Part shown: positions 4,064 through 16,379 of the stretch, in pieces
Position numbering within the stretch: the first letter of the stretch is position 1
Layout of the letters: each line of letters starts with the position of its first letter
From: Nitrosopumilaceae archaeon
GTDB lineage: Archaea; Thermoproteota; Nitrososphaeria; Nitrososphaerales; Nitrosopumilaceae
Assembly (NCBI GenBank): GCA_965207375.1
Contig: OZ242274.1
Coordinates: 1,440,001 to 1,504,000 of the forward strand
Length of the DNA: 64,000 bases
Direction of reading: 5' to 3'
The notes under the pieces: generated by a model
Databases searched by the model: none
Told to the model about the DNA's origin: nothing
What the model saw: only the letters and a program-made list of their open reading frames with translations
Program-made: the position numbers and the translations under genes

Positions 4064-4135
4064 AGGCCTGTTGTTTAGTAGAAGAACGATTGACTGAAAA
4101 TCAATAGGTCACGGGTTCGAATCCCGTCAGGTCCA
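4064..4135 (+). tRNA. tRNA-Phe(GAA), atypical
   Basis: Anticodon arm ATTGA-CTGAAAA-TCAAT; T arm ACGGG-TTCGAAT-CCCGT; acceptor AGGCCTG/CAGGTCC with A1:C72 mismatch; D loop lacks GG. Confidence 0.8.
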
Positions 4136-4577
4136 CGCCTTACCTAATGTCGTACAAATTCCTTGATCAAGGATTTTCTAAAATAACCAAAAATCGAGTA
4201 AATTTAACATCTAGCCTTAATTTTTTGGTACAAACTCAGGTCGTAAATTTTTCAGCCACAAAATTTTCACATATGTTCAAAAACTACATAGAATCAGAGG
4301 TGACCTGAATATTTGCTTGTTTGCATTGGTACTTGGAGAGTGGAATCTTGTAGAACTTGGATTACTGCCATCATCTAATTTACTTGATCGTGGCACATAA
4401 GATTACGTATATTCCCGCCGTGTACTTAAATAATTGATTAAATCAATATGGATATGGAAAATGAAAAACCAAAAGAAATCAAAAAAGCACCAGAACGACC
4501 GTTTTATGGTAGTCAGGAACAACCCACACGTACCGCTCCAGATGGTTCATCTAGCCAAGGACCCATCAAAGGTAAAC

Positions 4578-9393: not shown

Positions 9394-9725
9394 TCGGTTT
9401 AATGATAATCTACATAAACAACTGATTTGATTTCTTTTTGCAAATATGATTAAGTGATTTCGAGATGTAGTATGAAACCCTATCTTCTTCAGCCCATCAT
9501 TCACACATTGTTTTAACTCCTCTTCATCGGAATCAAGTATGGTTCTAAGGACTATAGTAATTAGTTGTATTTTCTGATATGGGTCATCAACTTCATCTAC
9601 CAGTGCTTGCAATGCCTGAGAGATGATTCGTAATTAGAAAACCACGCCTAACAAGAGCAAAAATCTGTGCCCAGATCTAATTACGAATCACGTCTCTGTA
9701 TTTCCAATAACTGTTCATCTGTCAT
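9382..9725 (-). pseudogene. Hypothetical gene interrupted by a MITE
   Basis: Removing 9619-9695 and one CTG restores MTDEQLLEIQALQALVDEVDDPYQ... Confidence 0.7.
9619..9695. mobile_element. 77-bp MITE
   Basis: 20-bp IRs AGAGATGATTCGTAATTAGA / TCTAATTACGAATCACGTCT (18/20); 3-bp target duplication CTG. Confidence 0.8.
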
Positions 9726-10205
9726 ATCATTAGTATATCTAAATAATATAAAAGGAGTAACGTAGATATTTTTCTATGAATAATTTGTAAAAACTTTCTA
9801 TCGTCTATTGTAGTTGTTTGTATCTTGTTGTTTGCTTTTTGTCACAAGGAATTGAATTTTTATTTGTGAATTTAATTTTTTGACAAGATTATTGTGGTAT
9901 CATCATATTGATACCTTTACCCTATTATGGTAGTTTAGTATCATTATATTGATACTTTTTTTTGTATATTACTGACTAAACGGGCTAACTTGTTTTGTGC
10001 AGTATAGTAGTGAAAACAAAAAACCAGGAATAAAATTCCAAAACAAATAGCAAATGCATGCGAAAAAACGTACACCCCCTAGATTTTCAACTACCCTACC
10101 AAAATCAACAAATTCAAAAATAAAGTCACGTCATATTGATACCTTTTTCACCACAAAAATCTTCTGAAATTTTTCAAATCAATTTTAAAAATTACACTAA
10201 ACCAC

Positions 10206-10268
10206 ATGGGCGATGATGAGACCACACATCTGAATCAGTATGATTGATTCCATTCATTCTGAGCCCAT
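10206..10268 (+). ncRNA. Box C/D sRNA-like unit 1
   Basis: ATGGGC stem, box C ATGATGA, guide GACCACACAT, D' CTGA, C'-like ATGATT, guide GATTCCATTCATT, D CTGA, GCCCAT. Confidence 0.85.
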
Positions 10269-10344
10269 CATAACCTACTTTCACAGAAACATCTTCTGCT
10301 ATTAAATTTGTCCTTTCAGATTTGTAAAAATTCCACTAAACAAC

Positions 10345-10409
10345 ATGGGCTATGATGAAGAACAGTCGTTCTGAAACCAGATGATTCACGATTTGCAATC
10401 TGAGCCCAT
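10345..10409 (+). ncRNA. Box C/D sRNA-like unit 2
   Basis: Same scaffold; guides AGAACAGTCGTT and CACGATTTGCAAT. Confidence 0.85.
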
Positions 10410-10484
10410 CACACCCTTTTCACAAAGAATCATTTTCTCTATTAAATCTGCCGAACAAAACTTGTAAAAATTTCACTAAACAAC

Positions 10485-10555
10485 ATGGGCTATGATGAAG
10501 TCAATCAGCTGAACAATCTACAAATGTAGAGACCCGCGGCTGAATCTGAGCCCAT
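10485..10555 (+). ncRNA. Box C/D sRNA-like unit 3
   Basis: Same scaffold; guides AGTCAATCAG and GACCCGCGGCTGAAT; C'-like ATGTAGA. Confidence 0.8.
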
Positions 10556-10631
10556 CATAACTTGTCTTCACAGTAACATTTTCTATTATTAAATTTGTCC
10601 TTTTAGACTTGTAAAAATTTCACTAAACCAC

Positions 10632-10696
10632 ATGGGCGATGATGAGACCACACAAACTGACTTCTGTATGAAGAATCATCCCTGGTCTGAGCCCAT
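10632..10696 (+). ncRNA. Box C/D sRNA-like unit 4
   Basis: Same scaffold; guides GACCACACAAA and ATCATCCCTGGT; C' ATGAAGA. Confidence 0.85.
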
Positions 10697-10770
10697 CATA
10701 ACCTCATTTTCACAGAACTATTTCTGCTATAAACTTTCCATAATGAAAAACAATTACAATATTTAATGTA

Positions 10771-10865
10771 AAGTGAGCGGCGATGATGAACGCGTGCAAA
10801 TCATATCCGATGAGAGACGGAAATGTTGATGCCTGACTCGCCGAGAGTCCCTGAGCCGCACACTT
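10771..10865 (+). ncRNA. Box C/D sRNA-like unit 5 (divergent, longer)
   Basis: Different terminal stem AAGTG-a-GCGGC / GCCGC-a-CACTT enclosing ATGATGA...CCGA...TGATG...CTGA. Confidence 0.75.
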
Positions 10866-10919
10866 CTCTCAACTTTCATTTCTTTCTTTTTAAACTTTGT
10901 AAAAATTACACTAAACCAC

Positions 10920-10984
10920 ATGGGCAATGATGAGACCACACAAACTGACTTCTGTATGAAGAATCATCCCTGGTCTGAGCCCAT
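10920..10984 (+). ncRNA. Box C/D sRNA-like unit 6 (same guides as unit 4)
   Basis: Scaffold and both guides match 10632-10696. Confidence 0.85.
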
Positions 10985-11136
10985 CATAACTTGTCTTCAC
11001 AGTAACATTTTCTATATCTAAACCTGCCGCAACCACAGGTACAATTTTCGTTCTTTGCAAGAACAAGCCCAGTGAGGGTTAATTACAAGTCAAACATCGC
11101 AAGCCGATTTTGGCTAAATTTACAAAACTTACGCTC

Positions 11137-11646
11137 ATGACTACAAAACGAAACCAAAAAATCACCATTGATGGTAAGGAATACCTAAAACGAGACGTAT
11201 GTAGATACGTCAAGGATTTCTCTGGAGAGATAGATGATCTCATCCTAACACCATGTGGTACAGGTCAGTCAGCCATAAAAAACTACGACGATGAAGTCGT
11301 GGCAACTGTTGACACAGACTGCATCCGAACTTTACTCGGTGATACCATACCGATTGAAGGTTTGGAGAGTATTGATGACAGACGTCAAAGGAAGGAATTT
11401 ACAAAAACGACACAAGTTGCTACAGGGAATTGGCACTCATGCATAGCAGATGAGAAAGGTAATCTACCTGATTGTGACGTGTGTCAATCATATATTCCAG
11501 AAAGCACATGGATAAGCCTACATAACATGTTGGCCGAATCTCTGGAAGATTCTATGATTGTTACCTTGCGCGACGAGTATGTCAAAGGACTAGATGATAG
11601 TCTACGATTCATTATAGAGTCCGAAGCTGACCGACGAGGATTGTAA
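11137..11646 (+). CDS. Hypothetical protein embedded in the C/D array
   Basis: ATG at 11137; N-terminus KITIDGKEY...VC resembles KINVDGKQY...VC of the ORF at 16646; followed by a T-tract. Confidence 0.75.
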   Translation: MTTKRNQKITIDGKEYLKRDVCRYVKDFSGEIDDLILTPCGTGQSAIKNYDDEVVATVDTDCIRTLLGDTIPIEGLESIDDRRQRKEFTKTTQVATGNWHSCIADEKGNLPDCDVCQSYIPESTWISLHNMLAESLEDSMIVTLRDEYVKGLDDSLRFIIESEADRRGL

Positions 11647-11720
11647 AATCCTCCCCCTTTTTTATTTTCAATAATGATTATTTCTTTTTCAAATCAATTT
11701 TCAAAATTTTACTAAACCAT

Positions 11721-11784
11721 ATGGGTGATGATGAACCGGCAGTCGATTTGATCTCGATGATGAAAAGCCAGAGTCTGAGCCCAT
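11721..11784 (+). ncRNA. Box C/D sRNA-like unit 7
   Basis: ATGGGT/GCCCAT stem; ATGATGA, ACCGGCAGTCGAT, TTGA, ATGATGA, AAAGCCAGAGT, CTGA. Confidence 0.85.
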
Positions 11785-11971
11785 CATAACCTCATTTACA
11801 GAAACATTTTCTGCTATTAAATTTGTCCCTTTATTTTTCAAGAGACTGGTCAAAGCCGGAAATATTTTGCTCATGAAAAAAGAAAAACAGGAAAAAACAC
11901 CATATTTTCCAAGAATAAAACGAGAATTCGAAGATGACCCAGAAGACCGGGAAATCTGGTGAATCACCCCC

Positions 11972-12048
11972 TTTTTTGTGACCTGACAAGTCTTTTCAAA
12001 TCTCACAGTATCCCGTATGGGGCTGACAGGCAGGTGAGTGTGGAAAAG
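11972..12048 (+). ncRNA. Structured RNA motif, copy A
   Basis: TGTGACCTGACAA...CTTTTC...CTCAC...CTGACAGGCAG-GTGAG-TGTG-GAAAAG. Confidence 0.75.
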
Positions 12049-12064
12049 ATACAACGTGATTCAA

Positions 12065-12229
12065 ATGTACAAAAACAAAGAACTCGTAGCATCTGAGCTT
12101 GTTGAATCTAACATTCTCAGATCAGACTCTGGTTTCCTCCAGGGAATAATCACCCATGAGGAACTCACAGAGATTGACAAGTTGATGGATGAAGCATTCA
12201 TCGACTTTGACATTTTGTGTCGGGAATAA
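12065..12229 (+). CDS. Small hypothetical protein
   Basis: 54-aa ORF directly after RNA motif A. Confidence 0.5.
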   Translation: MYKNKELVASELVESNILRSDSGFLQGIITHEELTEIDKLMDEAFIDFDILCRE

Positions 12230-12246
12230 TCCGATACACAAACCCA

Positions 12247-12324
12247 TTTTTTTGTGACCTGACAAACTTTTCAAACCGGCATTATCTGATGTATCAGACT
12301 GACAGGCAGGCCGGTGTGGAAAAG
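12247..12324 (+). ncRNA. Structured RNA motif, copy B
   Basis: Inner stem CCGGC/GCCGG; hairpin TCTGAT/ATCAGA. Confidence 0.75.
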
Positions 12325-12333
12325 CAAGCAACC

Positions 12334-12744
12334 ATGAAAAAAAGACAAAAAATCAAAATCCCCATCATGGATGCCCTAAAAAAGACAAAAGAACGACTAT
12401 TCAAAATACAAAACGCTGTATTTTGGGGTATCGTTGTAGTCGGTACAGGAATGAGCATAACCGATTCAATGGTCGAAAAACCTATTTTTGTTGACGGCAT
12501 AGCCTTTATTATTGCTGGCTTCGTAGGTTTGATAATGTCTTGGATAACTGCTGATGTTGCAAAAAGTCTTACCGAAAAAATCGAAAAAGTCGGTCAAGAA
12601 ACCAAAGAGGAAATTCGCAAGGTAGGTAAAGAAACCAAAGAGGAAATTCGCAAGGTAGGTACCGCAGTTGAAAAACACATGGAAGTATCTATAAAACAAA
12701 CTGAGATCCTGGAGAAGATCTTGCACAAACTTCCAGACAAGTAG
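12334..12744 (+). CDS. Two-TM membrane protein with coiled-coil tail, copy 1
   Basis: Two hydrophobic helices, then ETKEEIRKVG repeats. Confidence 0.8.
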   Translation: MKKRQKIKIPIMDALKKTKERLFKIQNAVFWGIVVVGTGMSITDSMVEKPIFVDGIAFIIAGFVGLIMSWITADVAKSLTEKIEKVGQETKEEIRKVGKETKEEIRKVGTAVEKHMEVSIKQTEILEKILHKLPDK

Positions 12745-15890: not shown

Positions 15891-15980
15891 TTTTTTGTGA
15901 CCTGACAAACTTTTCAAATCCGTTAATATCAAGTATAGCGTAAGCTGTACCCGGCTGACAGGCAGAACGGTGTGGAAAAG
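15891..15980 (+). ncRNA. Structured RNA motif, copy D
   Basis: As copy C with a GTAA tetraloop. Confidence 0.75.
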
Positions 15981-15989
15981 CAAACAACC

Positions 15990-16379
15990 ATGAAAAAGAG
16001 TCAAAAAATCAGAAACTCCGTCATGGATGCCCTAAAAAAGACAAAAGAACGACTATTCAAAATACAAAACGCTGTATTTTGGGGTATCGTTGTAGTCGGT
16101 ACAGGAATGAGCATAACCGATTCAATGGTCGAAAAACCTATTTTTGTTGACGGCATAGCCTTTATTATTGCTGGCTTCGTAGGTTTGATAATGTCTTGGA
16201 TAACTGCCGATGTTGCAAAAAGTCTTACCGAAAAAATCGAAAAAGTCGGTCAAGAAACCAAAGAGGAAATCCGCAAAGTAGGTACCACAGTCGAAAAACA
16301 CATGGAAGTAACTGTGAAACAGACAGAAAAACTAACCGAGATCCTGGAGAAGATCTTGCACAAACTTCCAGACAAGTAG
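15990..16379 (+). CDS. Two-TM membrane protein with coiled-coil tail, copy 3
   Basis: Near-identical to 12334-12744. Confidence 0.8.
   Translation: MKKSQKIRNSVMDALKKTKERLFKIQNAVFWGIVVVGTGMSITDSMVEKPIFVDGIAFIIAGFVGLIMSWITADVAKSLTEKIEKVGQETKEEIRKVGTTVEKHMEVTVKQTEKLTEILEKILHKLPDK

Follow-up and report, generated by a model that had tools for sequence, protein, structure and literature searches.

A tandem array of box C/D guide RNA genes in mobile-element-like DNA of an ammonia-oxidising archaeon

Organisation of the array

The subject of this study is a row of seven units with the anatomy of box C/D small RNA (sRNA) genes, located at positions 10206-11784 of a 64,000-nucleotide stretch of DNA (here called the window) from the genome of a Nitrosopumilaceae archaeon, G000. 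All seven lie on the plus strand and were confirmed by direct reading of positions 9900-12100, by repeat finding and by a genome-wide pattern search. A first-pass annotation had already proposed seven units, and its positions stand except that unit 5 starts at 10777 and not at 10771. The genome comprises 4.3 Mb in 4 contigs (C1 and so on in the coordinates below), has a G+C content of 37-38% and is 99.95% complete. It encodes an archaeal AmoA, and the host is therefore an ammonia-oxidising archaeon.

Unit 1 (10206-10268) is a box C/D sRNA gene with its C box at 10213-10219 and its D box at 10259-10262. Unit 2 (10345-10409), another box C/D sRNA gene, and unit 4 (10632-10696) are built on the common scaffold, and unit 6 (10920-10984) is a recent duplicate of unit 4, to which it is 98% identical and with which it shares both guides. 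Unit 7 (11721-11784) has a canonical C' box, TTGA as its D' box and the stem variant ATGGGT. Two members are atypical: in unit 3 (10485-10555) the C' box is degenerate and a hairpin lies inside the unit, and unit 5 (10777-10859) is an 83-nt variant with a D' box of CCGA. The stem GCGGC/GCCGC and the longer guides (about 17 nt) that had been described for unit 5 were found again. Its D-side guide is self-complementary, and it is the least certain member of the array.

The units are 63-83 nt long and recur with a period of about 140 bp (139-147 bp), separated by spacers of about 75 nt; the start-to-start distances are 139, 140, 147, 288 and 801 bp. Six of the seven share one scaffold, in which the stem ATGGGC/GCCCAT, box C, box D and the flanks are conserved. 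The repeated scaffold of units 1 to 6 spans 10161-11034 on the plus strand according to repeat finding and unit alignment. Each stem is preceded, at a distance of about 20-45 nt, by a conserved A/T-rich block that could be a TATA box or an initiator. A conserved block on the 3' side of the units ends in a short T-run, which is followed by a TATTAAAT-like motif. The earlier picture of conserved flanks around variable guides thus holds for flanks, boxes and stems. It does not hold for every guide: the D' guide of unit 1 is nearly identical to that of unit 4, and the identity of the guides in units 4 and 6 leaves 12 distinct guides instead of 14.

All seven units have a box C (RUGAUGA) close to the 5' end and a box D (CUGA) close to the 3' end, and in each of them a stem of 5-7 bp closes the pair. 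The full C-D'-C'-D pattern with 9-14-nt spacers fits five units, the exceptions being units 3 and 5. A relaxed regular expression for the four boxes and the stem matched only six places in the 4.3-Mb genome, five of them inside the array, and a control with the reversed pattern gave no match in G000 compared with 11 for the forward pattern. When positions 10100-11900 were compared with Rfam at E<=1, all 32 sub-threshold matches were to C/D-box families and all were on the plus strand. They fall on units 1-4, 6 and 7, none on unit 5 even at this cut-off, and the best of them, to sR5, scored 30.2 bits against a gathering threshold of 40.

Conservation points in the same direction. Across 16 units from five genomes the boxes are invariant and the guides variable, 97.9% of the terminal-stem cells are paired, and compensatory double changes occur at three of the six stem pairs, with a covariation score that none of 500 shuffles reached. 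The terminal stem closed in all six units that were folded. Boxes that vary as much as the guides in homologous arrays had been named as evidence that would speak against box C/D guide-RNA genes; the opposite was found, both within the array and in comparison with the homologous arrays, and the assignment is upheld. Judged by their sequence, the units are canonical archaeal box C/D sRNA genes of the kink-turn (K-turn) type.

The host encodes the proteins of a C/D ribonucleoprotein (sRNP), namely one Nop5 and one fibrillarin, whose genes are adjacent in an operon, plus L7Ae. A search of the six-frame translation of the whole genome with PF01798 recovered the host Nop5 (C1:979628) alone and no second Nop domain. 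Among 30 open reading frames (ORFs) of the window that were scanned with Pfam, no Nop, IS110 or nuclease partner was found at the level of hidden Markov models, in agreement with the previous remark that no Nop or IS110 gene is recognisable there. G000 also has core C/D sRNAs at C1:6656-6708 (plus strand) and C1:1297935-1297997 (minus strand), whose scaffolds recur in many genera of the family. A third family-wide core scaffold, found in many relatives by pattern search, was undetected in G000.

Guide complementarity to ribosomal RNA

Guides were extracted by coordinates and compared with the 16S and 23S ribosomal RNA (rRNA) of the same genome (4.47 kb for G000) by scoring Watson-Crick runs that cover guide position 5; rRNA positions were transferred to E. 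coli numbering by alignment with the rRNA of E. coli K-12. The D guide of unit 1 pairs over 10 bp with the large-subunit (LSU) rRNA, so that D+5 is LSU 2077, equivalent to E. coli A1969 in the helix 69-71 region. Likewise, the D guide of unit 2 forms 10 bp at LSU 868 (about E. coli 750, helix 35 region), and the D' guide of the same unit makes eight Watson-Crick pairs and one G:U pair with LSU 1896 (E. coli A1773). The D' guide of unit 7 addresses this last nucleotide in the same register, with seven Watson-Crick and two G:U pairs. The D guide common to units 4 and 6 forms 8 bp at LSU 2549 (E. coli G2445), in the strand that leads into the peptidyl-transferase centre. Orphans without a recognised target are the D' guides of units 1 and 4 and the D guide of unit 7, and the guides of unit 3 have weak 8-bp rRNA or tRNA matches at most. 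Overall, pairing with the cell's own rRNA is seen for about five of the 12 distinct guides (two with at least 10 bp, about three with 8-9 bp), and about seven are orphans. Those that match do so in the sense expected for methylation.

Two matches of at least 10 bp among 12 guides compare with a mean of 0.14 in shuffled controls, and only two of 500 shuffles reached this number. The 11-unit array of G004, a member of the same genus, gave a similar picture on its own rRNA, with five such matches among 17 guides against a shuffled mean of 0.20 and none of 500 shuffles reaching five. The D' guide of G004 units 3 and 5 (minus strand of the array locus L025, 10816-10881 and 10510-10575, respectively) pairs over 10 bp with the 23S rRNA of G004 and places D'+5 at LSU 2554 of G004, the adenosine of the catalytic centre that corresponds to E. 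coli A2451; its 2'-OH is described as critical for peptide-bond formation in the accessible part of a review (PMC13215694). Five units of this array also have A1969 as their predicted target, and three have 16S C970.

Several guides are found again in other genomes, aimed at the same rRNA nucleotide. The D guide of unit 1 returns in the D' position in G002 and in three units of G004 (1, 2 and 4), and the G004 counterpart forms 11 bp on the LSU rRNA of G004 at the nucleotide that corresponds to A1969. A D' guide of G059 forms 12 bp with the same C as the D guide of unit 2, as scored on the LSU rRNA of G000 and not on that of G059. Given these recurrences and the duplicate unit, the description of the units in the first-pass annotation as a programmable array and a guide library was an overstatement. 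The predicted targets of the array lie in regions that PMC7994747 and PMC4644070 name, in the portions available, as archaeal methylation hotspots, i.e. helices 35/35a, helices 68-71 and the peptidyl-transferase centre.

Distribution and genomic setting

A covariance model built from the 16 units was run on 141 genomes of the family; these tallies take in the unpublished G094, G108 and G109, and no locus-level claim rests on these three. Most genomes gave 0-3 matches. The exceptions were G004 with 12, G000 with 7, G019 with 6, and G059 and G126 with 4 each; two other members of the host genus, G001 and G003, gave 1 and 0, respectively. The array scaffold is present in five of the 141 genomes, and scaffold arrays are confined to G000 and G004, plus a fragment in G002 of the same genus, where two scaffold units lie 151 bp apart on a 1.6-kb contig. 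In G004 the stem is GAGGGC/GCCCTC and the period 141-174 bp. In a second genus (G019, G059), units on the same scaffold occur more loosely, in groups of two to four. Twenty matches from other places were examined; 18 belong to two core scaffolds that are distributed across the family and have their own guides, and the remaining two, in G004 and G059, are of the array type. As most of the matches examined are thus core scaffolds, the array units do not count as ordinary sRNAs held in common with relatives that lack an array, a possibility that had been raised against a special status of the locus.

Decayed paralogues of units 2 and 3 were found in G000 at C1:139880-140180 and C1:345790-345890. 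They have kept their guides, but their stems are disrupted and box D now reads CTAA or CTGT. Both are likely to be left over from earlier copies of the same element, and the copy at 345.8 kb lies 3.4 kb from a ParM-like fragment. Contigs from the sequencing runs X1, X3 and X4 are near-identical to the window. In X5, a relative with about 90% identity, contigs leave out unit 1, connect 10312 with 11832 and connect 11821 with 10756, which is a hint of array variation, short-read contigs over repeats being unreliable.

Searches of public collections with a flank-plus-box pattern yielded chance single matches only, in 9 stretches of genome_contigs and 1 of viral_contigs. The flank-plus-box loci L016 and L024 were rejected as array units, both being coding-looking sequence. 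A stem-box pattern gave eight single matches in viral_contigs and at least 119 stretches in metagenome_contigs, and the covariance model found eight weak matches among the stem-box loci. One multi-copy locus among the metagenome matches listed, L141, is a eukaryote-like cluster of small nucleolar RNA (snoRNA) genes beside an intron-bearing ribosomal-protein gene and is irrelevant here. BLASTN of the array against the phage collection gave no match.

The DNA around the array is accessory and mobile-element-like in gene content, patchiness and synteny, as the first-pass annotation had supposed. Genes in the window encode DDE and IS66 transposases, PIN, Fic and ArdC-N proteins and three DNA methylases, a D5-like primase-helicase, PolB, a helicase, PriL, PriS and a ParB-like protein, and a restriction-type methylase gene is followed by one for a PLD-SNF2 helicase. 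The plus-strand block at 41868-63998 contains a ParB-N/DNA methylase fusion, the D5-like primase-helicase, PolB, a DEAD_2-type helicase, PriL, the ParB-like gene, an MT-A70 methylase, PriS, a 1339-aa Eco57I-type methylase and the PLD-SNF2 helicase; this combination of replication and defence genes suggests a large self-replicating element. A PHROG scan of 10 window ORFs found no capsid, portal or terminase, and the element is therefore not called a virus.

In four genomes of the same genus, the first 20 kb of the window have no syntenic match, just short scattered ones. The array neighbourhood of G004 contains ORFs with homologues in or beside the window, among them a ParM-like gene (C1:1438558), an SNase-like gene and four others, and the two genomes have a local order in common in which the array is followed by a micro-ORF and then by a repeat of about 80 nt. 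In G000, G004 and G059, array-type units have the ParM-like gene at a distance of 0.3-11 kb; the product of this gene has no relative in viral_contigs. From gene content, patchiness and synteny we infer that the array sits in an integrated plasmid-like element.

The conserved micro-ORF encodes 29 aa and lies at 11873-11962 on the plus strand, 89 nt downstream of unit 7. It belongs to a family of predicted acidic proteins of 26-30 aa that end in EIW and are encoded less than 100 nt from array-type units in three genomes of two genera. The full-length homologues are at G004:C2:117417-117500 and 115608-115691 (directly after the array) and at G019:C31:2400-2477, about 80 nt before a unit. In their alignment 15 of 30 columns are invariant and the remaining changes are mostly conservative. 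A profile search of the 141 genomes gave 58-68 bits at these four places only and at most 27.6 bits elsewhere; as the profile was built from the same four sequences, the search can only be taken to exclude a further strong copy. The repeat of about 80 nt that follows occurs on the plus strand at 11966-12048, with a second copy at 12242-12324. Five copies are found near the G004 array (reverse strand of L025, 14141-15837), and a similar motif stands directly upstream of the G019 sRNA units. The repeat may be a promoter or a regulatory site.

The neighbourhood has further features. Between units 6 and 7 lies a 169-aa ORFan (11137-11646, plus strand) whose only homologue in 5.8 billion clusters is itself and which has no Pfam, PHROG or atlas match. 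Two small ORFs at 12217-12744 and 15972-16379 are 93% identical, share a hydrophobic stretch and a repeated charged ETKEEIRKVG motif, and match no family. An apparent protein homology of the first of them to L025 4198-4896 proved spurious: the tblastn match stems from the repeat of about 80 nt and is on the opposite strand. An inverted repeat at 9601-9713, with 38-nt arms that are 76% complementary, reaches about 36-fold the contig depth of its surroundings in run X1 and has many different flanks; it looks like a high-copy element of the miniature inverted-repeat transposable element (MITE) type. Finally, a family of divergent tRNA-Phe(GAA)-like genes has five copies, one in the window (4064-4136) and the others at C1:1341225, 1355322, 1407365 and 1974998. 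Four of the five follow one another at intervals of 14-52 kb in the region just before the window and within it. The family may represent tRNAs carried by the element or repeated attachment sites. A canonical-looking tRNA-Phe gene is at C1:1921024, and several anticodons are duplicated among the 60 predicted tRNAs of the genome.

Function, alternatives and relation to known systems

The anatomy of the units, their conservation pattern, the complementarity of their guides, the presence of the host proteins, the patchy distribution and the mobile-element-like context are observed. They are best explained by a tandem set of seven C/D sRNA genes, six on one scaffold and one divergent, which is carried by a plasmid-like element and probably uses the host sRNP to methylate host rRNA. 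This agrees with the earlier suggestion of an element-encoded guide set that draws on the L7Ae, Nop5 and fibrillarin of its host. Transcription, assembly of the ribonucleoprotein, methylation and any benefit to element or host are inferred, and the guides might act as follows. For transcription, each unit would depend on the A/T-rich element upstream of it or form part of a longer precursor. Its terminal stem and C and D boxes would fold into a K-turn to which the host L7Ae binds, and the Nop5 and fibrillarin of the host would then assemble on the sRNA. Pairing of the 10-13-nt guide upstream of box D or D' with the rRNA of the host would direct a 2'-O-methyl group to the nucleotide that faces guide position 5; in E. 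coli numbering, the predicted sites are LSU A1969, about 750, A1773 and G2445. The array itself would grow and shrink via recombination between its repeats.

Several observations weigh against this explanation. Units 3 and 5 depart from the standard architecture, and no unit reaches an Rfam gathering threshold, which is why we regard the array units as a new family within the C/D class. A match of at least 10 bp to rRNA is found for only two of the 12 distinct guides. The remaining targets depend on 8-9 bp or on G:U pairs, and matches of 8-9 bp are near chance level (shuffled mean of about two matches of at least 8 bp). The five long matches in G004 represent three distinct sites, and the related guides behind them are not independent. 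The ParM-like gene occurs in 16 of the 141 genomes, most of which are array-free. Moreover, no integrase, attachment (att) site or element boundary was found near the window, the sole clear tyrosine integrase being at C1:307448. Because these marks were not found, the label 'mobile element' rests on gene content, patchiness and common synteny.

The lack of an integrase, att site and ends would be natural if the units were a lineage-specific amplification of chromosomal sRNAs that serves ribosome biogenesis in a genomic island of the host, whose genus has large genomes, and that came to lie by chance amid insertion sequences (IS) and old plasmid remnants. The IS-riddled window could have mixed unrelated DNA, the guides aim at conserved rRNA sites as host sRNAs do, and the three scaffold-bearing genomes of the genus include its two largest. 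We nevertheless consider such an expansion unlikely. What the array neighbourhoods of G000 and G004 share is plasmid-type genes and a local order and not core synteny, same-scaffold units in the second genus adjoin the same ParM-like gene or micro-ORF, decayed copies occur at two more loci, one of them close to a ParM-like fragment, and G001 and G003 of the same genus have next to no model matches. More doubtful still is a selfish or decaying repeat, MITE-like or a duplicating sRNA derivative, in which most units are non-functional pseudo-guides kept by tandem duplication. The duplication of unit 4 as unit 6, the decayed copies with broken D boxes elsewhere, the orphan status of more than half of the guides and the missing or reordered units in the X5 population contigs would all fit. 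A precedent exists in Pyrobaculum, for which the accessible text of PMC6009581 describes 'transposed/composite' guides moved from D to D', gene duplication and MITE-like sRNA elements, with MITE-like sRNA copies bounded by conserved flanks in Pyrobaculum calidifontis. The array resembles these in its conserved flanks and variable guides, in duplication and in the move between D and D' (the D guide of unit 1 is a D' guide in G004). The Pyrobaculum copies, however, are dispersed in one chromosome, whereas the array units are tandem, lack terminal inverted repeats and are linked to plasmid-type genes; such dispersed copies as G000 has, two in number, are decayed. Boxes and stems have stayed intact in all seven array units while the dispersed copies decayed, stems have changed in a compensatory manner across genomes, and one rRNA nucleotide is targeted from different scaffolds or box positions in different genomes, all of which argues against mere persistence by duplication.

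The many orphan guides, about seven of 12 without a convincing rRNA target, also invite the idea that the sRNP acts on something other than rRNA, be it as L7Ae decoys, as guides to tRNA, mRNA or the RNAs of rival elements, or in protecting RNA from ribonuclease toxins. A few 9-10-bp matches to tRNA-like genes, a PIN-domain gene and the extra tRNA-Phe-like gene in the window are compatible with it. Yet we rate it as very improbable, as the best-supported guides point at rRNA, the tRNA matches were judged against shuffles of rRNA and tRNA together and not of tRNA alone, and no guide matches anything in the G000 genome beyond chance, the long matches being only 11-13 nt and at the expected rate. 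Least credible of all is an orphan TIGR-Tas-like array, or another RNA-guided DNA-targeting system with a Nop-domain effector, which the first-pass annotation had offered as its second option. The tandem layout, two guides per unit and mobile-element setting are indeed shared, the guide architecture of TIGR is evolutionarily related to C/D according to the accessible part of PMC12045711, which also places TIGR in mobile elements, and stem-loop TIGR units are said to resemble snoRNAs in the available portion of a preprint (10.64898/2026.09.09.750476). However, that part of PMC12045711 describes 36-nt tigRNAs with compact CCA/UG motifs and no K-turn, whereas the array units have K-turn boxes (RUGAUGA/CUGA), are 63-83 nt long, hence about twice the length, and recur at about 140 bp with spacers of about 75 nt. 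At the level of hidden Markov models, no Tas gene accompanies the array, host Nop5 is the only Nop-domain match in the genome, and no Nop, IS110 or nuclease partner was found among the window ORFs scanned. The adjacent opposite-strand matches of both guides that had been proposed as a check are absent from the G000 genome, in which no place has both guides of a unit (as 9-mers) within 40 nt on either strand, and several guides match rRNA in the methylation sense. Membership in TIGR-Tas thus fails on unit size, box type, effector and, within the G000 genome, the paired-target rule.

Seen as part of a plasmid-like element that employs the host sRNP, the array can be set beside other C/D guide genes. 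It shares with archaeal box C/D sRNAs the C/D'/C'/D boxes, the terminal stem, a guide spacing of about 12 nt, for some guides a probable complementarity to rRNA hotspots by the D+5 rule, and a host with L7Ae, Nop5 and fibrillarin. It is unlike them in having seven members in a row (11 in G004) on one repeated scaffold, in a mesophilic ammonia oxidiser whose relatives have 0-3 model matches, and in mobile-element-like DNA. Eukaryotic polycistronic snoRNA clusters of plants, yeast and others are also composed of C/D guide genes arranged head to tail. They are processed from one precursor and usually reside in host genes. The units of the array differ from them in that each has its own A/T-rich upstream block, and the host is an archaeon. 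According to the part of PMC7994747 available, the sRNA genes of archaea lie dispersed or form clusters of two or three, which arrays of seven and 11 units exceed. No description of tandem archaeal C/D arrays of such a kind was found in the full-text literature searched, most subscription journals being outside its coverage. With their tandem layout, the arrays form a K-turn C/D counterpart of TIGR and bear on the kinship of guide systems.

A bolder reading, which we put forward tentatively as possible rather than probable, is that a family of plasmid-like elements of ammonia-oxidising archaea carries a modular cassette of tandem C/D guides and a conserved micro-protein of 26-30 aa. The cassette would rewrite host ribose methylation in functionally central parts of the ribosome, namely around helix 35 and helices 69-71, in the strand 2441-2451 that leads to the peptidyl-transferase centre and in 16S helix 31, and would constitute an element-encoded 'accessory epitranscriptome'. 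If this is true, element guides could throttle or protect ribosomes, for instance against ribonuclease toxins, beyond stabilising them.

Box C/D guides are regarded as dispersed housekeeping genes that are mainly abundant in thermophiles. G000, a mesophile that oxidises ammonia, owes the larger part of its guides to a repeated cassette located in mobile-element-like DNA. Strains that have the array and strains that lack it would together offer a natural system for studying the effects of single rRNA methylations. If the guides are active, horizontally moving DNA would change which ribosomal nucleotides are methylated, giving elements a new route to the translation machinery of their host.

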